Assembly: GCA_020848035.1 (NCBI GenBank)
Contig: JADLAX010000026.1
Coordinates: 256,180-320,179, forward strand
Direction of reading: 5' to 3'
Length of the DNA stretch: 64,000 nucleotides
From: Anaerolineae bacterium
Lineage (GTDB): Bacteria > Chloroflexota > Anaerolineae > Promineifilales > Promineifilaceae
The notes beneath the pieces are model-generated. The model was not told where the DNA came from. It was given only the letters and a program-made list of their open reading frames with translations, and did no database searches. Shown piece by piece: positions 11,353 to 50,925 of this stretch. The translations under genes were made by a program, and so were the position numbers. How positions within the stretch are numbered: position 1 is the stretch's first letter; the number at the start of each line of letters is the position of its first letter.

Positions 11353-11388
11353 AACAATGGTTTGCCCACTGGGTACCTGCTGGCTACA

Positions 11389-14300
11389 ATGCACCACATG
11401 TACCAGCAAAACATCATTGTGCGTACCAAGCTTGTCGCGCCCCGCCCGCCCCGGCAGACCCTGCCGCGGCCGCGCATTACGCAGCGCCTGCTCGATGCAC
11501 AAAACCACCGTCTGACCATCCTGCAGGCGGGCACGGGCTACGGTAAAAGCACCGCTTTGGCCAGCCTGGCCTCGCAGCCAGGGGAACCGCCGCTCCGTTT
11601 TGTCTGGTACCGGCTGGAGGCAGAAGATGGCGATGCCCAGCCGTTTTTGCTGCACCTGCTGCACGGCTTTGGCATTGCTCTGCCCAATTTATCGCATGCG
11701 CCGCTGGCGGCGCTGGAGGCGTGGGGCCAGCAGCGCCAGCCGCAAGAGCTGCCGGTGTGGACGGCCGTTACCGACAGCCTCATCAACGAGCTGGCCAATG
11801 AACTGGACCAGCCCACCTTTTTGGTGCTGGACGACGTGCACCTGATCAGCGACAGCAGCGAACCAATCCGCATTCTCGACCGCCTCATCGGCCTGGCCCC
11901 CCATAATTTGCACATCATTTTGTCCAGCCGCTACCCACTCACCCTGCCGTCCCTGGTGACCTGGCGCGTCAAGGGGCAGGTGCTGGAAATTGGTCAGGAG
12001 GAACTGGCCTTCACCCCTGCCGAAATTGACGCCCTCTTCCGCAATTATTACGGCCACGCCCTGTCGCTGGAGCAGGCCACGATGGTGATCAATCGCATCG
12101 AGGGCTGGCCGATTGCCCTGCACCTCATCTGGCAGCGCTTGCAGCGGGACGGCGGTGCGTCGCTGGCCCAGGCGCTGACGCAGCTGTCGGGCACGGCCAG
12201 CGATCTGTTCCAATTCCTGGCGCAGGAGGTGCTGAACCAGCAGCCAGAGGACATCCAGGCATTTTTGCGGGAAACGGCCGTTCTTCGTGAAATGACCACC
12301 CCGCTCTGCAACCAGCTGCGCCGCCGCCAGGACAGCCAGCAGCTGCTGCGCTATCTGCTGGAAAAAGGGCTGTTTGTGGTCAACCTGGGCAACGGCTACG
12401 TGCGCTATCATCACCTCTTTCGCGACCTGCTGCTGAGCCAGCTCGCGCCCGACGAGGCGCAAAATTTGCACGAGCAGGCCGCCACCATCTACCAGCAGCA
12501 GGGGGAAGACGAGGAAGCGATTTTTCATTTGCTGGCGGCGGAGGCGTTTGAGCGAACGGCCGTCCTGCTCACCACCCTCGGCCGTCGGCTGGTGCGCGTG
12601 GGTCGGTTGGACACGCTGGCAGGCTGGATCGGCCGACTGCCGCCCGACATTTTGGCCCACTACCCCGCCCTGCTCGGCTACCTGGGCGACATCGCCCGAC
12701 TGCACTCCCGCTTCGACGAGGCGCTGGGCTGGTACCAGCAGGCCGAACAGCGCAGCCGCACCAAAGGCGACCGCCGCGGCATCGGCCAGGCGCTGCGCGG
12801 CCAGGCGCGGGTTTACCTGGACACGGTGAACCCGACCAAAGGCGAGGAGCTGCTGCAAGAAGCGCTGCGCCTCTCCGACGGGCAGGAAGATCGCGAAAGC
12901 CAGGCGCGGCTGCTGGAGCTGTTGGCCGAAAATCTGCTGAACCAGGGACGGCTGGGTGAGGCAGAAAATTACCAGGCTAAAGCCCGCGCCCTGCGCGAAC
13001 AGGGGCATGGCCCGGCCGAACTGCCGGTGCGGATGCTGCTGCGCACGGGACGGCTGGCCGAAGCGCGAGAAATCTTGGAAGCCCAGGCGCAGCAGGAAGA
13101 GCAGGCCCCCGTCTTGCGCCCCCGGGCCCACCGCGAAACGCTGCTGCTGCTGTCGCTCATTTTGGCCTACCAGGGGGAAGCGGATATGGCCCTGGCCACG
13201 GCCGTTTCCGGTACGCAGCGCGGTCGGGCCTTAAACTCGGAATTTATTACGGCCGTTGGCTACTGCCGCCAGGGGCACGCCTGGATGCTGCACAAAAACG
13301 AACCTGGCTACGAGCAAGCCCGCCAATCGTTCCAGCAAGGCATCGCCATGAGCGACCAGATGGAGGTGCCGCGCCTCAAGATCGAGGCATTTTGGGGGCT
13401 GTGCCAGGCATACGGCTTCCCCGGCGACCACGAGACGGCGCTAACCTACGCGCGCGAGGGCATCACCCTGGCCCGGCTGCACGGCGATGAGTGGGTAGAG
13501 ATGAGCATTCGCCTGACGATGGGTGCCACCTACACGCTGCTGGGCATGGTGCAGGAGGCCAACGAATGGCTGGCCCAGGCGGTTACCGGCTTCCGCGATT
13601 GCAGCGATATTTTTGGCGAAACGGCCGCACGCCTCTGGCGCTGCCTGCTGTGGCACAAAACCGATGACAACACCCGCCTCAAGCGCGATCTGGACGATCT
13701 GCTGCCGCTGATCAGCCGCCATCAGTACGAATTTTTGTTCCAGCGGCGCACCCTGCTGGGGCCGCCTGATCCACGCGCCCTGGTGCCCCTGCTGCTTTTT
13801 GCCCGCGAGCAAAACATTCATGCCGCCACCGCCGAGGCGATCCTGGCCCAGCTGGGCTTGGCCCAGGTGGAGCTGCATCCTGGCTTCCAGCTGCGCATCC
13901 AGACGCTGGGGCCGTTTCGCATCTGGCAGGGCAGCGAGGAGCTGCCCAGCCGGGCGTGGCGGCGCAAGAAGGCGCGCCAGCTGCTCCAGCTGCTGGTCAC
14001 CTATCGCGGCACGCTGCTGCACCGCGACCAGATTGCCGAGATGCTCTGGCCGGAGCTGGACCCAGACGGCGCGGTGCGCGACTTTAAGATAGCGTTCAGC
14101 GCCATGTGTTCGGTGCTGGAGCCGGACCGCAAGCGCAATGCGCCGTCGGCGTTTGTGGTGCGCGACGGCAGCCGCTACGGCCTGCGCGACGAGGCGGACA
14201 TCTGGCTGGACGCGGCCGAATTTGAGAAGCTGCTTGACCAGGGGGATCATCTTTACCAGAAGGATGTGGTGCGGGCGGTAGGGGGGTATGAAACGGCCGT

Positions 14301-14643
14301 TACCCTCTACGAAGGCGACTACCTGCAAGCCTACCCCTACGAAACCTGGTCTCACGAGGAGCGTGAACGGCTGCGCGCCCGCTTTTTGCACGCCGCCGAT
14401 CGGCTGGCCCAATGGCTGGCGGACCAGGCCGCCTGGGAGCGGGTTGTCACGCTCAGCCAGACCATTTTGCAGCAGGACGACTGCTGGGAAAACGCCTACC
14501 GCCTGCTGATGCTGGCCCACATCCAGCTGGGCAACCGGGTCCAGGCGCTGCGCACCTACCAGCGGTGCGAAACCATCCTGCAAGCCGGTCTGGGCGTAAC
14601 GCCCGCGCCCGCCACCGTCCAGCTCTACGAAACCATCCGCTAA
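11389..14643 (+). CDS. MalT-like STAND ATPase fused to a SARP-type winged-helix + BTAD transcriptional activator domain
   Basis: Walker A LQAGTGYGKSTAL. Walker B FLVLDDVHLI. TPR-like middle region. C-terminus LGPFRIWQGSEELP..RRKKARQLLQLL (OmpR/SARP wHTH), then BTAD (YEGDYLQAYPYETWSHEERERLRARF..ALRTYQRCETIL). Start ambiguous: TTG 11362, ATG 11389 or ATG 11398. Confidence 0.85.
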   Translation: MHHMYQQNIIVRTKLVAPRPPRQTLPRPRITQRLLDAQNHRLTILQAGTGYGKSTALASLASQPGEPPLRFVWYRLEAEDGDAQPFLLHLLHGFGIALPNLSHAPLAALEAWGQQRQPQELPVWTAVTDSLINELANELDQPTFLVLDDVHLISDSSEPIRILDRLIGLAPHNLHIILSSRYPLTLPSLVTWRVKGQVLEIGQEELAFTPAEIDALFRNYYGHALSLEQATMVINRIEGWPIALHLIWQRLQRDGGASLAQALTQLSGTASDLFQFLAQEVLNQQPEDIQAFLRETAVLREMTTPLCNQLRRRQDSQQLLRYLLEKGLFVVNLGNGYVRYHHLFRDLLLSQLAPDEAQNLHEQAATIYQQQGEDEEAIFHLLAAEAFERTAVLLTTLGRRLVRVGRLDTLAGWIGRLPPDILAHYPALLGYLGDIARLHSRFDEALGWYQQAEQRSRTKGDRRGIGQALRGQARVYLDTVNPTKGEELLQEALRLSDGQEDRESQARLLELLAENLLNQGRLGEAENYQAKARALREQGHGPAELPVRMLLRTGRLAEAREILEAQAQQEEQAPVLRPRAHRETLLLLSLILAYQGEADMALATAVSGTQRGRALNSEFITAVGYCRQGHAWMLHKNEPGYEQARQSFQQGIAMSDQMEVPRLKIEAFWGLCQAYGFPGDHETALTYAREGITLARLHGDEWVEMSIRLTMGATYTLLGMVQEANEWLAQAVTGFRDCSDIFGETAARLWRCLLWHKTDDNTRLKRDLDDLLPLISRHQYEFLFQRRTLLGPPDPRALVPLLLFAREQNIHAATAEAILAQLGLAQVELHPGFQLRIQTLGPFRIWQGSEELPSRAWRRKKARQLLQLLVTYRGTLLHRDQIAEMLWPELDPDGAVRDFKIAFSAMCSVLEPDRKRNAPSAFVVRDGSRYGLRDEADIWLDAAEFEKLLDQGDHLYQKDVVRAVGGYETAVTLYEGDYLQAYPYETWSHEERERLRARFLHAADRLAQWLADQAAWERVVTLSQTILQQDDCWENAYRLLMLAHIQLGNRVQALRTYQRCETILQAGLGVTPAPATVQLYETIR

Positions 14644-21238: not shown

Positions 21239-22065
21239 CGGATCTCACTTACCGGTATCCGCAAACGGCCGTTCCTGCCCTACAAACCATCAGCTTCAGC
21301 GTGGCGCCGGGGGAGTTTGTGGCCATTATCGGGGCCAACGATGCGGGCAAATCGACCCTGTGTTACGCGCTGACTGGCTACGTGCCCCACTTTTTTCAGG
21401 GGCAGATGGACGGCAGCGTGCAGGTGGCGGGGTTGGAGACGAGGGAACGGCCGTTACCAGAACTGGTGACCCAAGCTGGACTCGTCTTCCAAAACCCAAC
21501 CACGCAAATGTCCGGCGTGCGCGACACGGTGCGCGGCGAGGTGGGCTTTGGCCTGGAAAACCTGGGCGTGCCCCGCGCCGAGATGCACACCCGCATCGCC
21601 GAGGCGCTGGAAATTACCGGCACCACCGATTTGGCGGAGCGCCACCCCCGCGAACTTTCTGGCGGGCAGCAGCAGCGCGTGGCCCTTGCGGCGATGCTGG
21701 CGATGCGCCCCCAGCTGCTGGTGCTGGACGAGCCCACGGCGCAGCTGGACCCGGTGGGCAGTCGAGAACTGTTTGCCGCCCTGCAGCGGCTCAGCCGCAC
21801 CGGGCTGACGCTGGTGCTGGCCACGCACAAGCTGGAATGGGCCGCCGCCTACGCCGACCGTCTGCTGCTGCTGCACAAAGGTCGGTTGGTGCAGCAAGGT
21901 ACGCCGCAGGAGCTGCTCACCCAGCCAAACTTGGTCGAATGGGGCATTGCGCCGCTGCCGTTTACGGAAGCCGCCCGGCAGGCGCGGGACGAGGGGTTGT
22001 GGGATCGGGAACGGCCGTTGCCTATCACCCTGGCCGACGCCATTGCCGGGTTTTTAGAAATGTGA
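21211..22065 (+). CDS. ecfA: ECF transporter ATPase component A
   Basis: Walker A GANDAGKST, signature LSGGQQQRV, Walker B LLVLDEPT. Overlaps the ecfT stop. Confidence 0.9.
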   Translation: MANMALVHITDLTYRYPQTAVPALQTISFSVAPGEFVAIIGANDAGKSTLCYALTGYVPHFFQGQMDGSVQVAGLETRERPLPELVTQAGLVFQNPTTQMSGVRDTVRGEVGFGLENLGVPRAEMHTRIAEALEITGTTDLAERHPRELSGGQQQRVALAAMLAMRPQLLVLDEPTAQLDPVGSRELFAALQRLSRTGLTLVLATHKLEWAAAYADRLLLLHKGRLVQQGTPQELLTQPNLVEWGIAPLPFTEAARQARDEGLWDRERPLPITLADAIAGFLEM

Positions 22066-28737: not shown

Positions 28738-30756
28738 ATGTTATCACCAATCGAAAAGATCCTGTTTGCCTTTTTGGCGCTCATCTGCATCGTGGCGACA
28801 ATCAACACCTTTGGCCAGATGTACAAAATCGTCATGCGCGGCCCAGGCAAGCTAAAGCTCAATGATCTGCCGCGCCGCATCGTCACCGGACTGGTTGCCC
28901 TCATCTCCCAGGGGCGCATCATTCGCCACCGCAAACTCTCCTCCCTGTTCCACTACGGCGTCGCCTGGGGCTTCATCTTTTACTTCCTCGTCAACGCCAT
29001 CGACGTCGCCGAAGGGCTCATCACCGGCTTCGAATTCTTGCCAGATAACATCATTGGTGACGTTTACCGCTTCGCCGCCGACATTTTTGGCGCGCTGGTG
29101 CTCATTGGCGTGGTTTACTTCATTTTGCGCCGCTTTGCCTGGGGTGATCCCGCCCTCACCATTCGCGACAACGTGAAGCTGCTGCCCCAGGTCCGCAGCG
29201 GCGGCGTCAGCAAAGATTCCTTTGTTGTCGGCCTCTTCATCCTGTGTCACGTCGGCTTCCGCATGATGGCCGCCGCCTTTCACATTGCCCAACACGGTGC
29301 CGATCCCGGCCAGCCAGTGGCCAACCTCATTGCCCAAACCTTCCTGGTGGGCGGCAGCGAAACCGCCCTCAACTTTGGCTGGCACTTTAGCTGGTGGGTT
29401 GCCGTCGGCCTGGTTTTGATGTTCCTGCCCTACTTCCCCTACACCAAACACGCCCACCTCTTCATGGGCCCGTTTAACTTCATGACCAGCCCCGACCGCA
29501 CCTACCTGGGCCAGATGTTCACCCTGGACTTCGAAGATGAGTCGATTGAACAATTTGGCGCGGCCACACTGTTTGATTTGGAGCAAACCAAGCTGGTTGA
29601 CGCTTTTGCCTGCATCATGTGCAACCGCTGCCAGGAAGTGTGCCCCGCCTACCGCACCGGCAAGGAATTGTCGCCAGCGGCCGTTGAAATCAACAAACGC
29701 TACTACATTCGCGAAAATATGATTGAGTTTGCCAACGGCGGCGAAGCAACCATACCCCTGCTCGATTTTGCCATCAGCGAGAGCGCCCTGTGGGCCTGCA
29801 CCGCCTGCGGTCACTGCATCGAAGTTTGCCCGGTGGGCAACACCCCCATGCTAGACATCATGGATATGCGCCGCGACCAGGTGCTGATGGCCTCCGCCTT
29901 CCCACAGGAGCTGAAGGGCGCGTTTGTCGGCATGGAGCGCATGGGCAACCCATGGCAATCCACCGACGACCGCATGGCCTGGGCCGCCCCACTCGAATTT
30001 GACGTGCCCACCGTGGAAGAAAACCCCGATTACGAGTATTTGCTCTGGGTGGGCTGTGCCGGGGCCTTCAACCCAGACGCCCAAGCAACCGTACGCGCCG
30101 TGGCCACCATTATGCATCACGCGGGCGTCAGCTTTGCCGTGCTGGGTGATGCCGAAAGCTGCACCGGCGACTCTGCCCGCCGCGCTGGCAACGAATATCT
30201 CTATTACGAAATGGCCCAGGGCAACATCGAAACGCTCAACGCGGCCGGGGCGGACAAAAAGCGCATCGTTACCAGCTGTCCGCACTGCTTCACCACCATC
30301 GGCAAAGAGTACGGCGAGTTGGGCGGCCATTACCACGTTTTCCACCACACCCAGCTTATTGCCGACCTGGTGGGCCGGGGCAAGCTGCGGCTCAACGGCA
30401 GCAAGCTGGAAAGCGTCACCTACCACGATCCGTGTTACCTGGGTCGGCACAATGGCATTCTTACCGAGCCGCGCACGGCGCTGGCTAAAGCCGGTGCCAG
30501 GCTGCTGGAAATGGAGCGCAGCGGCAAAGATTCGTTCTGCTGCGGCGCTGGCGGGGCGCAATATTGGAAGGAAGAGGAGCACGGCACGGAAGCCGTCAAC
30601 GCCAACCGTTTTGCCGAGGCACAAGGCACCGGCGCTACTACGCTGGCCGTCGGCTGCCCCTTCTGCGCCACCATGATGATCGATGCCAACCGCGAAAAGG
30701 GTGAACCGATGCAGGTGAAAGATGTCGCCCAGGTTGTGCTGGAAGCAATGAGCTAA
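28738..30756 (+). CDS. Membrane-anchored HdrD/GlpC-like Fe-S oxidoreductase (NarI/DsrM-like TM domain fused to 2x[4Fe-4S] + CCG domains)
   Basis: N-terminal TM helices. CIMCNRCQEVCP and CTACGHCIEVCP ferredoxin motifs. Cys-rich CCG-type segments including DSFCCGAGG. Confidence 0.8.
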   Translation: MLSPIEKILFAFLALICIVATINTFGQMYKIVMRGPGKLKLNDLPRRIVTGLVALISQGRIIRHRKLSSLFHYGVAWGFIFYFLVNAIDVAEGLITGFEFLPDNIIGDVYRFAADIFGALVLIGVVYFILRRFAWGDPALTIRDNVKLLPQVRSGGVSKDSFVVGLFILCHVGFRMMAAAFHIAQHGADPGQPVANLIAQTFLVGGSETALNFGWHFSWWVAVGLVLMFLPYFPYTKHAHLFMGPFNFMTSPDRTYLGQMFTLDFEDESIEQFGAATLFDLEQTKLVDAFACIMCNRCQEVCPAYRTGKELSPAAVEINKRYYIRENMIEFANGGEATIPLLDFAISESALWACTACGHCIEVCPVGNTPMLDIMDMRRDQVLMASAFPQELKGAFVGMERMGNPWQSTDDRMAWAAPLEFDVPTVEENPDYEYLLWVGCAGAFNPDAQATVRAVATIMHHAGVSFAVLGDAESCTGDSARRAGNEYLYYEMAQGNIETLNAAGADKKRIVTSCPHCFTTIGKEYGELGGHYHVFHHTQLIADLVGRGKLRLNGSKLESVTYHDPCYLGRHNGILTEPRTALAKAGARLLEMERSGKDSFCCGAGGAQYWKEEEHGTEAVNANRFAEAQGTGATTLAVGCPFCATMMIDANREKGEPMQVKDVAQVVLEAMS

Positions 30757-43665: not shown

Positions 43666-43725
43666 ATCAAAGATTTCGCAGATTGAAAAGATTAAAAAAT
43701 CTGGTTAATCTGCGAAATCTTTGAT
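43666..43725. repeat. Hairpin of the ATCAAAGATTTCGCAGATT family
   Basis: ATCAAAGATTTCGCAGATT (43666..43684) pairs with AATCTGCGAAATCTTTGAT (43707..43725). 19-bp perfect stem directly after the LigT-like stop. Confidence 0.9.
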
Positions 43726-43780
43726 AAATGCCATCTTTAAGCACGCTTCTTATTTGAGGAGTCTTATTTTTAACTTGCAA

Positions 43781-44596
43781 ATGATTGATTTTTTGTTAAA
43801 CGGAGAACGGTATCACCTGCGCTGCAGCGACGATCTGACAAAGCCGCCGCTGCTGCTGCTGCACGGCTTCACCGGCAGCAGCGCCAATTGGGATCCTCTG
43901 CTGCCGCTGTTGGGTGCGCGGCATTCGGTCATCGGGGTAGATATTTTGGGACACGGCCGTTCCGCCAGCCCACTCGATCCCCAGCGCTACACCATGCTTC
44001 AGGTCGCCGCCGACCTCATCGCCCTGCTGGATGAATGGCACATTGAGCAAACGGCCGTTCTCGGCTACTCGATGGGCGGGCGACTGGCATTGTACCTGGC
44101 CTGTACCTACCCGGAACGATTTAGCCAGCTCATCCTGGAAAGCAGCTCCTCCGGTTTGGCCACCGAGGCGGAACGCGCCGCCCGCCGCCAAAGCGACGAG
44201 GCGCTGGCCAACTGGATTGAAGCCAACGGCATCGAAGCCTTTGTCGACCGCTGGGAGACACTGCCGCTGTGGGCCAGCCAGGAGCAGCTTTCAGAAGAAG
44301 TTCGGGCGCGATTGCGGCAGCAGCGACTGCAAAACAGTCCGCTGGGTCTGGCCAATTCGCTGCGCGGCATGGGCACCGGGGCACAGCCCTCGCTGTGGGA
44401 AAAATTGCCTGCGCTAACCCTGCCCACGCTGCTCATCGCTGGCGAGCTGGACGAGAAATTTGTGGCCATTAACCAAAAGATGGTGGAACGATTGCCCAAC
44501 GGCCGTCTCCACCGCATCCTCCACGCCGGACACACCACCCATCTGGAACGGCCGTCTGCATTTGCCACGGCCGTGTTAACCTTCATGGGAAACTGA
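43781..44596 (+). CDS. Alpha/beta hydrolase, MenH (SHCHC synthase)-like
   Basis: LLLLHGFTGS, nucleophile elbow LGYSMGGRLAL, lid region RRQSDEALANWIEANGIEAFVDRWETLPLW. No other men genes in the window. Confidence 0.7.
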   Translation: MIDFLLNGERYHLRCSDDLTKPPLLLLHGFTGSSANWDPLLPLLGARHSVIGVDILGHGRSASPLDPQRYTMLQVAADLIALLDEWHIEQTAVLGYSMGGRLALYLACTYPERFSQLILESSSSGLATEAERAARRQSDEALANWIEANGIEAFVDRWETLPLWASQEQLSEEVRARLRQQRLQNSPLGLANSLRGMGTGAQPSLWEKLPALTLPTLLIAGELDEKFVAINQKMVERLPNGRLHRILHAGHTTHLERPSAFATAVLTFMGN

Positions 44597-44636
44597 GTAA
44601 TTGGGTAATTCAGGCAGACAATTACCCAATTACTCA
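44594..44636. repeat. Hairpin of the GAGTAATTGGGTAATT family
   Basis: TGAGTAATTGGGTAATT (44594..44610, includes the menH-like stop) pairs with AATTACCCAATTACTCA (44620..44636). 17-bp perfect stem. Confidence 0.9.
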
Positions 44637-44650
44637 ATTACAATAGCCAG

Positions 44651-45049
44651 ATGAACAAACAACTTCCGCTCCTTATTTATGATGGCGACTGCGGCTTTTG
44701 AGAAAAGTCCGCACGGCTCGTCGAGTCGTGGACCAACGGCCGAATCGCCCTACAACCGTGGCAAAACATCCCAGAAACCATGACCGCGTTGGGCCTGACG
44801 GACGACGACGGCATGGCCCAGGCGTGGTTTGTGGCTGAAAACGGCCGTCTCACCGGTGGCGCAGAGGCGATTAACCAATCGCTGCGTTACTGTTGGTGGT
44901 TACGGCCGTTCACGTACCTCTATCCCCTGCCCGGCATACGCCAGCTGCAAGATTGGGTCTACCGCTGGGTGGCAGAAAACCGGTACCGCCTGCCCGGCAG
45001 CACCCCGCAGTGCGCCATTCCCACCAAAAATGATCAATCCGCTCTCTAA
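44651..45049 (+). CDS. DCC-family (DUF393) thiol-disulfide oxidoreductase with in-frame TGA at 44699..44701 (candidate selenocysteine; otherwise a pseudogene)
   Basis: ATG 44651: MNKQLPLLIYDGDCGF-TGA-EKSARLVESW.., continuing in frame into track ORF 44780..45049 (..AINQSLRYCWWLRPF..WVYRWVAENRYRLPG). The TGA sits where the family has the second Cys of DGxCxxC. Confidence 0.55.
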
Positions 45050-45788
45050 AAATGATTGCCGCCGCCTGGCGCAACATTTGCCAGACGGCCCCCAAACCGT
45101 CATCTCGCGGGCGCATTTGCTGTGGGGCACGGCGCGGGCGTATGCCATTGGGCTGACGGCGGGGGGATTGGACACGGCCGTCGTCGAAGACCCCGGCTGT
45201 CCTGGCGAACCGATGATCTTTGGCCATAACGCCCGGCAAATCGCCGATCTGATGCCGCAAATCCCCGACTGGTTCTGCGTTAACGTCGCCACTGACCTGG
45301 CCGATGAGCTGGAACCGCTGCTGGCGGCCCAAATGGGCTGCGCCCTGCGGCGGCAAGGGGATGTGTACCACACGCTTACCCAAGCACCACCAGCGGCGCT
45401 GCTCACTCACCCCGCCGTGCGCCTGCTCACCCCTGACGATCTGCCCCTGCTGCAAGCCGCCCCAGCCGAGCTGCGCGGTCACAATCCGGAACAGTTGTTG
45501 CAGAGAACGGCCGCTGCCGGGGCCATCATTCAAGGCCAACTGGTAGCCATCGCCCAAAATTACGCCCTCAGCGAAGGTTTTGGCGACATTGGCGTCTTCA
45601 CCCGGCCCGAGTGGCGCGATCATGGCTTGGCCGCCGCTGCCGCGGCGCTGGTGGCGGAGTGGCTGTGGCGCAACGGCCGTATCCCCGTCTGGAGCTGCGG
45701 CGAGCAAAACCACCCCAGTTTACGCGTGGCGAAGAAAGTGGGTTTTGTAGAAAACGGCCGTCGTGTCTACCTCATCCTGGACGAATAA
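45030..45788 (+). CDS. GNAT family N-acetyltransferase
   Basis: C-terminal GQLVAIAQNY..IGVFTRPEWRDHGLAAAAAALVAEW..GEQNHPSLRVAKKVGF. I prefer ATG 45030 (MINPLSKND) over the long track extension from 44829. Confidence 0.7.
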   Translation: MINPLSKNDCRRLAQHLPDGPQTVISRAHLLWGTARAYAIGLTAGGLDTAVVEDPGCPGEPMIFGHNARQIADLMPQIPDWFCVNVATDLADELEPLLAAQMGCALRRQGDVYHTLTQAPPAALLTHPAVRLLTPDDLPLLQAAPAELRGHNPEQLLQRTAAAGAIIQGQLVAIAQNYALSEGFGDIGVFTRPEWRDHGLAAAAAALVAEWLWRNGRIPVWSCGEQNHPSLRVAKKVGFVENGRRVYLILDE

Positions 45789-45975: not shown

Positions 45976-48900
45976 ATGTCTCGTCAATTTTCCACTTTCG
46001 CCCGATTTCTGCTTCTGGTTTTGGCGGTAACGACCGTTCTCACCCTCACCGTGCACGCCAGCCCCACCAGCCAGGACACACCACGCCCGCGCTTCGGTCT
46101 GGAAGATATTCCCTACCAGGCAGGTGCGGAAAACAGTGCACCAAACGAGTCGGCCTTGAGCGTGACCGCACCAAACGTCTTGCTGCCCTGGAGCAAAGTG
46201 GCGTTTCAATCGCTGCGCAACGGCAGTTGGGACATTTTTGTGGGCAATGATGACGGGACGGGGCAAACGGCCGTTGTCGGCAGTGGCAACGCTGAGATTC
46301 AACCCCACCTCAACCGGGGCAATACCAAAATTGTCTACGCCTCCAACAGCGGCGGCGACTATGAGATTTACACCGCCAACTTCAATGGTTCCGGCCAGAC
46401 CGCCCTCACCAGCAACACCACCAGCGACGGCAATCCATCCTGGTCGCCTGACGGCAGCAAAATCGTTTTCGAAGCGTACCGCAATGGCGAAGCCGACATC
46501 TACGTGATGAACGCCAACGGCACCAATCAGGTCCGCCTCACCACCCACTCGGACTTCGACGGCATGCCCAGTTGGTCGCCCGACGGCAGCAAAATTGCCT
46601 TCGTCAGCCGACGCACTGGTGGCTACCGCATTTACGTGATGAACGCCGACGGCTCCAGCCAGACGCAGCTCTCCAACCAGCCCTACAGCCTTCGCCCGCA
46701 GTGGTCGCCCGACGGCACCCAGATCGCCTACGATGCCGACGGCGATGGCGACGGCTGGCAAGACCTCTGGCGCATGAACGCCGATGGCAGCAGCCAGACC
46801 CTTGTCGTCAACCCCGGCGGCCAGACCGATGCCTGGACCTCTAGCTGGTCCCCAGACGGCAGCCGCATTGTTTACACGCTCATCTCCTTTGTCTACTACC
46901 AGGGCAACTGGTACTGGACCACCGCCTACCCTGATGCCTGGAGTCCCAACTTGGGCACCACCCGCCTCAGCAGCAACGGCACCGACTGGGATGCCACCTG
47001 GCAAACCAGCGATAGTTCATCCCCTGCGCTGACGCTCAACTCGATCCCGCAATACTCGCGTAATCCATTAACCGTAAGCTGGGTGGGCACAGATGTGGGC
47101 AGCGCCGGAATCAAAAGTTACGATGTTCAATACCGCTTAGCTGGGGCCACGAACTGGAGCAGTTTGTCCGCAGGAACGACGGCAACTACGGCCAATTTCA
47201 ACGGCTCCGTAGGCCAAACCTACCAATTCAGGGTCCGGGCCACAGACAAAGCTTTCAACCGCAGTAACTGGCAGTACAACTTTCAAACAACCCTGTATAG
47301 TTGGCTGATTAGCGGTAACATCACCGACAATCGCGGAAACCCGATCACCAATGCCACAGTTGCAACTACACCTGCAGCTTTCAAAACATCATCAAGCGAT
47401 TTCCATGGCTTCTTCCAAAACTTTGTAGGAGGAACACCAAACAATTATTCTGCAAGCTTGTTCAAAAGCGGTTATAGTGCCTTGCCTGCCACAGCCTACA
47501 TGTCAAGTGAGGATGCTGTTGTAAGAATGGTCCTCCCTCCCCTCGACAATATCTTAATAAACTGGGGATTTGAGGATGGTCCCTTTGGTCCATCCAACTG
47601 GCAAAGCTTAGGGCTGTTAACTGAGCGCATCACTGCAGAAAAACATACTGGCTCTTATTCTGCTTTTATGGGTGAGGCAACCACACCACAACCAGTTAAT
47701 GTATCGACTACCTCAGGGGCCTCGTTTTCGCCCAACATTACCAGTACAGAAGACGGCAAAATACATATAATTTGGCTTGAAGATGACCTTACTGGAATTT
47801 GCCGGGTAATGTATCGGAATTTAGACACGAATGGCTCTGTTTCAGCAGTCGTAGTTGTTTCTGGTTCCGGAGATCAGTGTTACTACAATTCCATAATTGC
47901 AGATGCAAATGGAGTTGTACACGTTTCATGGTTACAGTTAATTGGGGGTAATTATCACGTTTATTACAGACAACGTGATGGTATCGGCAATTGGAGCTCT
48001 ATTGAAGATGTTTCTTTGGTTAACTTTGGAGCTGCGCAGCCCCATTTAAAAATTCGTGATACAGGAGAAGTTTATTTGGTTTGGAATGATAAACAAAATA
48101 ATGAAGAGATGTTATTTTTTTCAGAGAGAGAGGGAGTATCTAATTGGAGTACCCCACTGAACATCTCTCCCGGTTTATCTTCATCGAAGACTTTTGATAT
48201 AGACATAGATCATCTCGGAGGCATCCATGTGCTGTGGAGAGAGTTCGATTATTTGCATTATTACGAAGCTTCAATATTAGCTACCTATCGCTCAAGCGAT
48301 GGTACCTGGTCTGCTCCAACAATCGTGGCTGGACCAGATGGGCATAAAAGCGTGCCCGATTTTACTATTGATAGTACAGGCAAAGTTCACGCAGTCTGGT
48401 CAAATATCGATCCTGCTTCAGAGTACCAGATCTATTATTCATCTCGAAATTTAGATGGGACTTGGACAGCGCCTGCACAACTTTCAAACGATGGGTTCGG
48501 CAATGGGATGGCTTTAATTACGGTAAATATTGACGGGAAACTTTACGTGCTGTGGCAAGGAGATAGTGGATTCCGTTATATTATAAGAAGCAGCACCGGA
48601 ACGTGGGGAACAATTCAAACAATACCTTCAATAAACAACCCACCCGTAATTTTCGAAGTCGATCAAACAGGCACACTTCATTTAGCCTGGAGGGATCAAG
48701 ATAGTAATATGGGAAACCTTATTTACGCATTTCAAAGTAGTGATAATATCTGGTCAACACCATTGAATATTTCCGGTGTTGACTCCGAAGTAGGCGTTAC
48801 TAGTTCCTTCCTTGCCTCTGATGGTTCGATAAGTTTTGCCTGGTCTAAGTCCAGTGAAGAATTGGATTACATTGGAGAAATATTCTCGGTTCGGGCTAAA

Positions 48901-49635
48901 CCGGGCACCTACACTCTTTCTCAAACTGTAAATATACCAGGCACAATGATAAACCCAACATTGTCATTATTTGCCAAACCTGCAGCTAGTGGAAGCGAAA
49001 ATGATCCGATCCTCAGTGTAAATATCGATAACGGAACTTCGAACCAAAGCTTTTTATTAATGAATGTTAACGATCCGAATTGGTCACACTACTGGATTGA
49101 TCTTTCACCGTGGCTGGGTGAATCCATTCAAATTAACGTCTCTTATGAAGTAGCGTCTACAGCACCATTTGAAGCAACAAGCTCAACACCGTTAAATGGA
49201 TTTTACTTAGATGAAATTACATTGGGCTCCTCATTTACCGACGTTTGGATTCAAATTGATGGTTCTAACGAAGCACTGCGTGGGGAAGAAGTTACTTACA
49301 CGATTTCCTATGGAAATAGAAGCAGTATAGATGCTGATGATGTTTCTATTACGGCCGTTCTCCCCCCACAGTTAACTTTCTTAAGCGCCAGTTTGCCACC
49401 TTCCAGCCAATCGCCAGGCTTGACCTGGAACATTGGTGACTTACCTGCCAACAGCGGCCCGATTTCTTTCACGATTACCGCCAGGGTGAAAAATACCGCT
49501 CAAGGGTTGAGTAATGCCACGTCCACTGTTAATATCACCACATCGTCTACAGAGTTAGAGGTGTTTAACAATGTGGGCCAAAGCGACCTGTTAATTGGCA
49601 CCAGATTGTACACACCCTTGATTATTAAGAATTAG
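45976..49635 (+). CDS. Large secreted multidomain protein: TolB-like PD40 beta-propeller repeats + FN3/Ig-like modules + BNR/sialidase-like repeat region + C-terminal DUF11 domain
   Basis: GGAGGA RBS, signal peptide. PD40 repeats (PSWSPDGSKIVF, PSWSPDGSKIAF, PQWSPDGTQIAY, SSWSPDGSRIVY). Recurring G.hHhhW strands (VHVSWLQ, VYLVWND, IHVLWRE, VHAVWSN, LYVLWQG, LHLAWRD). DUF11-like VTYTISYGN..ITAVLPPQLTF..TWNIGDL. Confidence 0.85.
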   Translation: MSRQFSTFARFLLLVLAVTTVLTLTVHASPTSQDTPRPRFGLEDIPYQAGAENSAPNESALSVTAPNVLLPWSKVAFQSLRNGSWDIFVGNDDGTGQTAVVGSGNAEIQPHLNRGNTKIVYASNSGGDYEIYTANFNGSGQTALTSNTTSDGNPSWSPDGSKIVFEAYRNGEADIYVMNANGTNQVRLTTHSDFDGMPSWSPDGSKIAFVSRRTGGYRIYVMNADGSSQTQLSNQPYSLRPQWSPDGTQIAYDADGDGDGWQDLWRMNADGSSQTLVVNPGGQTDAWTSSWSPDGSRIVYTLISFVYYQGNWYWTTAYPDAWSPNLGTTRLSSNGTDWDATWQTSDSSSPALTLNSIPQYSRNPLTVSWVGTDVGSAGIKSYDVQYRLAGATNWSSLSAGTTATTANFNGSVGQTYQFRVRATDKAFNRSNWQYNFQTTLYSWLISGNITDNRGNPITNATVATTPAAFKTSSSDFHGFFQNFVGGTPNNYSASLFKSGYSALPATAYMSSEDAVVRMVLPPLDNILINWGFEDGPFGPSNWQSLGLLTERITAEKHTGSYSAFMGEATTPQPVNVSTTSGASFSPNITSTEDGKIHIIWLEDDLTGICRVMYRNLDTNGSVSAVVVVSGSGDQCYYNSIIADANGVVHVSWLQLIGGNYHVYYRQRDGIGNWSSIEDVSLVNFGAAQPHLKIRDTGEVYLVWNDKQNNEEMLFFSEREGVSNWSTPLNISPGLSSSKTFDIDIDHLGGIHVLWREFDYLHYYEASILATYRSSDGTWSAPTIVAGPDGHKSVPDFTIDSTGKVHAVWSNIDPASEYQIYYSSRNLDGTWTAPAQLSNDGFGNGMALITVNIDGKLYVLWQGDSGFRYIIRSSTGTWGTIQTIPSINNPPVIFEVDQTGTLHLAWRDQDSNMGNLIYAFQSSDNIWSTPLNISGVDSEVGVTSSFLASDGSISFAWSKSSEELDYIGEIFSVRAKPGTYTLSQTVNIPGTMINPTLSLFAKPAASGSENDPILSVNIDNGTSNQSFLLMNVNDPNWSHYWIDLSPWLGESIQINVSYEVASTAPFEATSSTPLNGFYLDEITLGSSFTDVWIQIDGSNEALRGEEVTYTISYGNRSSIDADDVSITAVLPPQLTFLSASLPPSSQSPGLTWNIGDLPANSGPISFTITARVKNTAQGLSNATSTVNITTSSTELEVFNNVGQSDLLIGTRLYTPLIIKN

Positions 49636-50139: not shown

Positions 50140-50145
50140 CCGCCG

Positions 50146-50176
50146 AACCTGCCAGACTGAAACCTGGCAGGTTTTA
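50146..50176 (+). terminator. Terminator-like hairpin after the 164-aa ORF
   Basis: AACCTGCCAG (50146..50155) pairs with CTGGCAGGTT (50164..50173), running into TTTT. Confidence 0.55.
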
Positions 50177-50386
50177 GATTCCCCCATTCCTAGATAAAAT
50201 CCCGGTTATGCCTCGAAATTGGTCTTGGCTGGTCAACGGCCTGCTGATCTTGCAGTACGTGTGGGCGCTAGGGGAAGCAACGGCCGTTTCCGCCACAAAA
50301 AACCCCTCACCTTTGTCACCAGCCCGACGGGCAGCGGGTGGAAGTCCAATGAAAATCCACAGACTTGTGGTGAGCGCAGCCAAATC

Positions 50387-50436
50387 ATTTCGCAGATTCA
50401 ACAGATTTTTTCTCTGCGACTCCGCATCTCTGCGTT
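50387..50436. repeat. Degenerate member combining CGCAGAT and CTCTGCG units
   Basis: ATTTCGCAGATTCAACAGATTTTTTCTCTGCGACTCCGCATCTCTGCG upstream of the ATL gene. Confidence 0.6.
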
Positions 50437-50460
50437 AAATTATTCTCGAAGGAGACAGCC

Positions 50461-50844
50461 GTGAATCAACCAACCCTCACCAACCCAGACGCATTTTATG
50501 AGCAGGTGTGGCAGCTGGCCCGCCAGATTCCGCGTGGGCGAGTGGCCACCTACGGCCAGCTGGCCCAGCTCATTGCCTGCCCCACCGGCGTTACCCCAGA
50601 TGAGTACCACGCCTTTGGCGCACGCTGGGTGGGCAGCGCCATGGCCGCCTGCCCCGCCGATGTGCCCTGGCAGCGGGTGATCAATTCCCAGGGCAAAATC
50701 AGCCAGCGACCAGGTGCCGAAAGGCAGCGCCAGCTGCTGGAACATGAAGGCATCGTGTTTGCCAGGGAGCGCATTGACCTGAAGGCTTACCATTGGCGCG
50801 GCCCTGGCGAGCCAGAGCCGCCGCAGCAAGCCAGGCTATTTTAA
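50461..50844 (+). CDS. Alkyltransferase-like (ATL) protein, MGMT DNA-binding domain without the acceptor Cys
   Basis: GTG start 6 nt after AAGGAGA. IPRGRVATYGQLA.. and PWQRVINSQGKIS, where true Ogt/Ada proteins have PCHRV. Confidence 0.8.
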   Translation: MNQPTLTNPDAFYEQVWQLARQIPRGRVATYGQLAQLIACPTGVTPDEYHAFGARWVGSAMAACPADVPWQRVINSQGKISQRPGAERQRQLLEHEGIVFARERIDLKAYHWRGPGEPEPPQQARLF

Positions 50845-50925
50845 GCCAAGCCGTCACATGCATGAATTTAGAACAGATTTTCTATTTGACCTTGACACAT
50901 TCCCATATCGGAATATAATACACGT

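Follow-up and report, generated by a model that had tools for sequence, protein, structure and literature searches.

The DNA analysed here, a stretch of 64,000 nucleotides referred to as the window, contained a short forward-strand gene of the DCC1-like (DUF393) family between an alpha/beta-hydrolase gene and a GNAT acetyltransferase gene (Table 1). The reading frame of the DCC gene opened at ATG 44651, read MNKQLPLLIYDGDCGF, met a TGA at 44699-44701, and stayed open in the same frame to TAA 45047-45049. The mechanically made list of open reading frames held only an 89-codon piece of the gene (44780..45049). The first-pass annotation had described an ORF from this ATG with one in-frame TGA that continued into the listed piece, and these statements about the sequence were confirmed. 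The GNAT gene followed both the selenocysteine (Sec) and the Cys forms of the DCC gene in related genomes, and it is probably co-transcribed with the DCC gene. A 20-nt inverted repeat was located at 44591-44639, between the stop of the hydrolase gene and the start of the DCC gene. Its arms (AACTGAGTAATTGGGTAATT and AATTACCCAATTACTCAATT) were 95% complementary, 9 nt apart, and AT-rich in a window of 58% GC, and a weak promoter-like match at 44615-44644 overlapped it. The repeat may serve as a terminator or in the binding of a regulator.

Table 1. Features of the DCC locus, with positions in the window.
Feature	Positions	Strand	Evidence
Alpha/beta-hydrolase gene, upstream conserved neighbour, with a normal TGA stop	43721..44596	+	Abhydrolase_1, model 1-245/245
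DCC1-like (PF04134/DUF393) oxidoreductase coding sequence, 132 residues, one in-frame UGA (residue 17, predicted Sec)	44651..45049	+	Pfam; 26 other TGA sequences
Redox motif C14-G-F-U17 preceded by D11-G-D13; the family CxxC with predicted Sec as the second residue	44690..44701	+	Alignments
UGA predicted to be read as Sec	44699..44701	+	TGA in the window and 26 other sequences; TGC/TGT in 137 other loci
SECIS-like hairpin within the coding sequence: upper stem 44712-44719/44723-44730, loop GUC 44720-44722, weaker lower stem 44707-44710/44730-44733	44707..44733	+	
GNAT acetyltransferase gene, downstream conserved neighbour, overlapping the DCC gene by 20 nt	45030..45788	+	Pfam

With Cys placed at the TGA, the product matched Pfam PF04134 at 65.5 bits (cut-off 27.8; E=1.3e-17). 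The curated cut-off was thus exceeded in an alignment of residues 8-116 to model positions 1-112 of 113, which covered the domain from end to end and therefore spanned the TGA. The earlier assignment to the DCC/DUF393 family was borne out by this match. Alignments placed the TGA at the column of the second Cys of the invariant DxDCxxC motif, in agreement with the earlier reading of C-G-F-U at the redox site. The motif here was D11-G-D-C14-G-F-U17, with the UGA at an otherwise invariant Cys column. An alignment with DCC homologues had been proposed as a check, and it gave Cys at this column in 137 of the 137 Cys-type loci fetched, encoded by TGC in 103 and by TGT in 34. Likewise, C12 and C15 of the Cys orthologue P0008 were invariant among 44 Cys homologues, all of which had Cys at the column of residue 17. 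An AlphaFold2 model of P0008 (pLDDT 86.9) showed a strand at residues 5-8, the CxxC at 12-15, and a helix at 13-26, so that the motif followed strand 1 and opened helix 1. The top PDB matches to this model in Foldseek were nearly all thioredoxin-fold proteins (ERp72, Mrx1, GSTs, and Trx3), none of them significant (best E=0.02), and a sequence search of the PDB found no solved relative.

A protein search yielded 179 relatives. About 70 of the 79 closest public protein clusters were N-terminally shortened gene calls that covered 52-83% of the query. These calls came from MAGs labelled Ardenticatenaceae, Anaerolineae, Promineifilaceae, or Chloroflexota, and they began with VESWT..., MESWT..., or MQTWT..., just past the position of the TGA. 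Starts of this kind are the mark usually left where gene callers have cut a selenoprotein gene. Inspection of the underlying DNA revealed TGA at the same column in 26 further sequences, and TAA or TAG in none. Twenty-four of these belonged to Chloroflexota of the Ardenticatenaceae/Promineifilaceae/Anaerolineae type, and two (L096 and L097) to a more distant, Roseilinea-like subgroup. The protein identity of the TGA forms to the window extended down to ~56% in the main group. The two distant forms were 44% identical to the window and lay near the Cys-type gene of Candidatus Roseilinea (L052). All 11 of the closest species-representative genomes (L001-L010 and L027; 61-86% protein identity) carried the TGA and read DGDCGF*EKSARL, where the asterisk marks the TGA; one of them, L001, was the complete chromosome of Candidatus Leptofilum (NZ_OZ244997.1). 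Thirteen metagenome loci, including all of L081-L092, also had TGA at this column. Two independent metagenome assemblies, L084 and L081, were 95.5% and 93.6% identical to the window in DNA and both contained the TGA, which excluded a read error. Cys occupied the same column in syntenic orthologues of 62-69% identity.

The coding sequence on both sides of the TGA was intact in these relatives, and no other stops or frameshifts were found in any TGA form. Among 22 distinct sequences, two to four codons were used for each residue of the YDGDCGF segment before the TGA, with one amino-acid change in all, and an ATG 13-22 codons upstream of the TGA was kept in every sequence. Because the upstream variation was practically confined to synonymous changes and the ATG was kept, the leader is evidently translated in frame and subject to purifying selection. 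The first-pass annotation had called for other TGA-containing orthologues, and the 26 sequences, with the 11 species-representative genomes and the distant subgroup among them, supplied these. It had also named decayed copies in close relatives as evidence against a selenoprotein; none were found, and the relatives had the same TGA flanked by intact, selected coding sequence.

A fold of positions 44696-44760 gave the stem-loop at 44707-44733 as the minimum-free-energy structure. The lower stem consisted of 4 bp, formed by GUCC (44707-44710) with GGAC (44730-44733), and was followed by a 2-nt bulge. The upper stem of 7-8 bp closed a 3-nt loop, GUC, which began 18 nt after the UGA. The calculated energy was -9.8 kcal/mol for the stem-loop alone and -13.1 kcal/mol with the lower stem. 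The position of the stem-loop, the 2-nt bulge, and the distance of about 18 nt from the UGA to the loop were all as described before; only the gap between the TGA and the stem, given as 6 nt, had to be corrected to 5 nt. The published bSECIS model requires a loop of 3-9 nt, an upper stem of 4-16 bp, a distance of 16-37 nt from the UGA, and an MFE of -7.5 kcal/mol or lower, with G in the first two loop positions, usually then G or U (PMC13188914, Fig. 2 legend). The DCC hairpin lay within all of these limits, with a loop of 3 nt (the lower limit), a stem of 7-8 bp, GU at the start of the loop, a spacing of 18 nt, and an energy below -7.5 kcal/mol. In a single sequence, the hairpin was not unusual: its z-score against dinucleotide shuffles was -0.22, and a SECIS-like hairpin at least as stable occurred at 56 of the 1847 TGA triplets (3%) on both strands of the window. 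The hairpin alone was thus within chance, and the case rests on comparison. The sequences of the relatives indicate that it is the conservation among them, and not the single hairpin, that exceeds chance. No Rfam family was found in the window at the gathering thresholds, and a search of 44640-44800 at permissive thresholds gave only noise.

For the analysis of covariation, 22 distinct sequences were aligned from the TGA onward. In the upper helix, formed by columns 15-21 with 25-31, 94.8% of the cells were paired. Pair 18-28 was UA in 13 sequences, CG in 3, GU in 3, UG in 2, and AU in 1, and was broken in none, and pair 21-25 was CG in 9, GC in 8, and UG in 1. Column 18 holds the third, synonymous position of Arg codons, and its partner, column 28, opens a Ser/Thr/Ala codon. 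Likewise, a Leu codon ends at column 21, and a Glu/Gln codon begins at column 25. No constraint at the protein level would explain either coupling. The observed covariation or percentage of pairing was reached by none of 500 column shuffles, and when the 3' partners were slid by 1-3 columns, pairing fell from 87.7% to 20-51%. RNAalifold proposed the same helix unprompted, at 8 bp with the added pair 14-32. The first two bases of the loop, G22 and U23, were invariant. The earlier claim that the geometry was compatible with a bacterial SECIS was upheld, as the hairpin both fitted the published model and covaried.

The two distant TGA forms had stems unrelated in sequence, CCGGCGC/GCGCUGG in L096 and AAACGU/ACGUUU in L097. 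Both kept GU at positions 22-23 after the UGA, inside the 6-nt loops CGUGUU and CGUGUC, respectively. The energies of the Sec forms ranged from -8.2 to -15.8 kcal/mol, whereas the Cys orthologues P0017 (L161) and P0008 (L163) reached only -4.0 and -6.3 kcal/mol in another register, and the Val codon in the loop of the Sec forms was replaced by an Ala codon in both loci. The compensatory changes, together with the lack of the hairpin in the syntenic Cys orthologues, indicate selection on the hairpin as an RNA. At the place that the SECIS takes in the Sec forms, the Cys-type Roseilinea gene (L052:3043-3102) had a fairly stable hairpin of -11.3 kcal/mol, which was either left over from a Sec form of the past or present beforehand as a structure that eased the conversion.

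The genes selA, selB, and selD and a tRNA-Sec were found neither in the 64-kb window nor in any fetched locus. ARAGORN detected no tRNA-Sec in the window or in 25 loci, and Pfam analysis of 47 window ORFs and the reconstructed DCC product revealed no gene of the Sec machinery and no known selenoprotein gene. Searches by tblastn with approximate E. coli SelD and SelA queries gave no match in 756 kb of window and fetched DNA. A six-frame scan for ORFs joined by an in-frame TGA yielded no second selenoprotein gene in the window; the candidates at 200-850 and 50219-50680 were rejected, since their translations were of low complexity and looked non-coding. Among cultured Chloroflexi, species including Anaerolinea thermophila, Caldilinea aerophila, and Sphaerobacter thermophilus have been reported to possess SelD, SelA, and SelB together with 3-9 known selenoproteins (Peng et al. 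2016, PMC5029168, Tables S1-S2), which lends support at the level of the phylum.

Several readings of the TGA other than Sec were weighed against these results. A nonsense mutation, or an error of sequencing or assembly, in a Cys-type DCC gene would need no more than a single-base change from TGC or TGT. The TGA, however, was shared by 26 sequences from independent genomes and metagenomes at identities down to ~56% and 44%, all free of other stops and frameshifts, and two assemblies 94-95% identical in DNA agreed with the window. Both a pseudogene and a sequencing error were refuted by these comparative data, and the chance that either accounts for the TGA is close to nil. That this organism uses a genetic code such as 4 or 25, with TGA as a sense codon, was suggested by nothing beyond the in-frame TGA itself. 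TGA was the stop of 14 of the 57 greedy ORF calls in the window, among them those ending at 22063-22065 and at 44594-44596, which the first-pass annotation had correctly cited as normal stops; the latter closes the Pfam-complete hydrolase gene directly upstream, and no other credible gene of the window contained an in-frame TGA. The normal TGA stops refuted a recoded code, which has a negligible probability.

It is also conceivable that the real gene is the shorter, annotated form that starts past the TGA, at ATG 44780 in the window or at a GTG within the hairpin loop in the relatives, and that the 16 upstream codons are an untranslated leader. All public gene calls for the relatives look so, and the shortened products still match PF04134. 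Against this, the upstream codons were kept at the protein level with nearly all changes synonymous, and the Pfam match ran from model position 1 across the TGA. By the P0008 model, the short product would have neither strand 1 nor any part of the CxxC and would keep little of helix 1. The loop codon of the window is GTC, which offers no GTG start, and the product would begin at residue 44. We therefore consider the short form extremely unlikely. Read-through of the UGA without selenium, with Cys or Trp supplied by a suppressor or near-cognate tRNA and the hairpin serving only to stimulate the process, would suit a position that needs a Cys-like residue and a window in which no Sec machinery was found. 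It would leave unexplained the features of the SelB type, namely the invariant GU that opens a small loop and the fixed 18-nt spacing, as well as the placement of GU at 22-23 on unrelated stems in L096 and L097. A single change from TGA to TGC or TGT would give Cys at full efficiency, yet the TGA has been kept over deep divergence, and Sec decoding is common in Chloroflexota. Selenium-free read-through was accordingly judged very unlikely. The comparative evidence thus supported the earlier interpretation of a DCC selenoprotein that has Sec in place of the second Cys of CxxC and a SECIS downstream. We hold with high confidence that the product of the gene is a selenoprotein of the DCC1-like (DUF393) family, an oxidoreductase of predicted thioredoxin fold.

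In the synthesis of this selenoprotein, translation would start at ATG 44651 and proceed to the UGA at 44699. SelB carrying Sec-tRNA(Sec) would bind the hairpin at 44707-44733, which would offer a G-U loop at a distance of 18 nt past the UGA. Sec would then be inserted in place of termination, and translation would continue to the TAA at 45047. The active site of the predicted product, C-G-F-U, would be located at the start of helix 1. There, the Cys-Sec pair may cycle between the selenol/thiol and the selenenylsulfide, like the CxxC of the Cys homologues.

The proposed mechanism is that of a standard bacterial selenoprotein, a homologue of thiol oxidoreductases that has CxxU and an in-frame SECIS, and not a new one. 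Similar to the CxxU selenoproteins of the thioredoxin fold (SelW-like PF10262, AhpD-like, and Trx7/PDZ; PMC13188914, Table 1), the product would be a small redox protein with Sec in place of one Cys in its CxxC-type motif. As in these proteins, there are many Cys homologues, Sec would be the C-terminal member of the pair, and an in-frame bSECIS hairpin follows right after the UGA; the difference lies in the family, which is PF04134 (DCC1-like/DUF393) for the DCC gene. Zhang et al. 2006 (PMC1794560) found that Cys-to-Sec conversion has mainly given rise to thiol oxidoreductase families of this sort. With the Cys-type DCC1-like/DUF393/YuxK proteins (PF04134), the product shared the domain from end to end, the DxDCxx(C/U) motif, and the C-terminal signature YRWVAxNRYRLPG, and the Cys-type orthologues likewise lay between an upstream alpha/beta-hydrolase gene and a downstream GNAT gene. 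In contrast to the Cys-type genes, the second Cys is encoded as UGA in the window. Residues 21-28 (ARLVESWT) of the window gene double as the SECIS hairpin, with the Val codon supplying the GU of the loop, whereas the closest Cys orthologues have Ala. The hairpin resembled the E. coli fdhF-type SECIS and the bSECISearch consensus (via PMC13188914) in that it lies in frame 3' of the UGA, that G and then U open a small loop, that the spacing falls within 16-37 nt, and that the energy is below -7.5 kcal/mol. It differed from the characterised SECIS elements in having no sequence similarity to them, no Rfam match, and a predicted loop of only 3 nt.

PF04134, DCC, and DUF393 were missing from a May 2026 review of prokaryotic selenoproteomes and from its Table 1 (PMC13188914), although the review gives domain identifiers for its families. 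No model in NCBIfam release 20 matched the protein at E<=1, so the NCBI pipeline cannot annotate a DCC selenoprotein. In the open-access text of the literature, no paper paired DUF393, DCC, or YuxK with selenocysteine, although supplements or subscription papers may differ. The DCC/DUF393 family therefore appears to be new to the selenoprotein catalogue. Its inclusion would add a protein family to the bacterial selenoproteome and extend selenium use to lineages of the Ardenticatenaceae and Promineifilaceae. It would also correct a systematic error in public databases, in which dozens of "DUF393 domain-containing proteins" are shortened at the N-terminus and left without the active site. Furthermore, Sec at the second position of the CxxC would support, on independent genetic grounds, the role of the DCC motif as a genuine redox center.

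A rough neighbor-joining tree, built on a short protein and without support values, united the main Sec forms in a clade that left out P0019 and P0053, both of the Cys type. The Cys forms P0008, P0009, P0017, and P0018 were nested inside this clade, and L096 was sister to the Cys-type L052. The topology suggests at least two Sec lineages, and P0008, P0009, P0017, and P0018 possibly arose by reversion from Sec to Cys. The same Roseilinea-like DCC gene was recovered from two different metagenomes, Ga0272446 and Ga0308414, with TGA and a hairpin in L096 and with TGC in L103 (1484-2561 in both). Identity between the two loci was 99.6% across the 3' part of the gene and the next ~700 nt, with one mismatch through the ~960 nt to the end of the locus. 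In contrast, they were only 72% identical over the first ~105 nt of the gene and unrelated upstream of position 1484, with the junction near locus position 1604. The 5' segment of L103 resembled L052 (82%). These patterns may reflect a recombination that swapped a module of CxxU plus SECIS, or an assembly chimera. If the former is true, L096 and L103 would be a snapshot of a switch from Cys to Sec by replacement of a cassette, and not by point mutation with stepwise evolution of a SECIS. The wider picture, in which DCC/DUF393 is an uncatalogued selenoprotein family that arose or was transferred at least twice in Chloroflexota and in which a CxxU-plus-SECIS module of ~100 nt may move between alleles by recombination, is tentative, and we regard it as possible and not as likely. 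Sec and Cys orthologues in one neighborhood, with a possible mosaic allele, would provide a compact system for studying the origin of a SECIS within a coding sequence.

Other features of the window were also recorded. The gene at 28738-30756, which contained no in-frame TGA, encoded an HdrD/GlpC-like Fe-S protein of 672 residues that had two CCG domains and one 4Fe-4S dicluster domain; Sec forms of the Fe-S oxidoreductase (GlpC) family are known in other bacteria (PMC1794560). ARAGORN placed an 82-nt tRNA-Gln(UUG) on the reverse strand at 12715-12796, inside an ORF of 1093 codons (11362-14643) with AAA, TPR, and BTAD domains by Pfam. This call was probably a false positive, as no Rfam tRNA was found there at the gathering score. 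Downstream of the DCC locus, an ORF of 1219 codons at 45976-49635 contained PD40 beta-propeller repeats, BNR-like repeats, and DUF11, and its GC3 was 0.51 compared with ~0.75 in its neighbors. The ORF was missing from that position in L001 and L083 and present in L164-L167, and it is a variable gene that was possibly acquired. In L164-L167, genes for a PMT glycosyltransferase (800 aa) and a DNA_binding_1 protein (PF01035, 127 aa) were situated between an ORF of 164 codons and an ArsR-type HTH gene (L164:15505-18329). At the corresponding place in the window (50140-50925), ~780 nt had no convincing ORF, which suggests that the PMT and DNA_binding_1 genes were deleted there.
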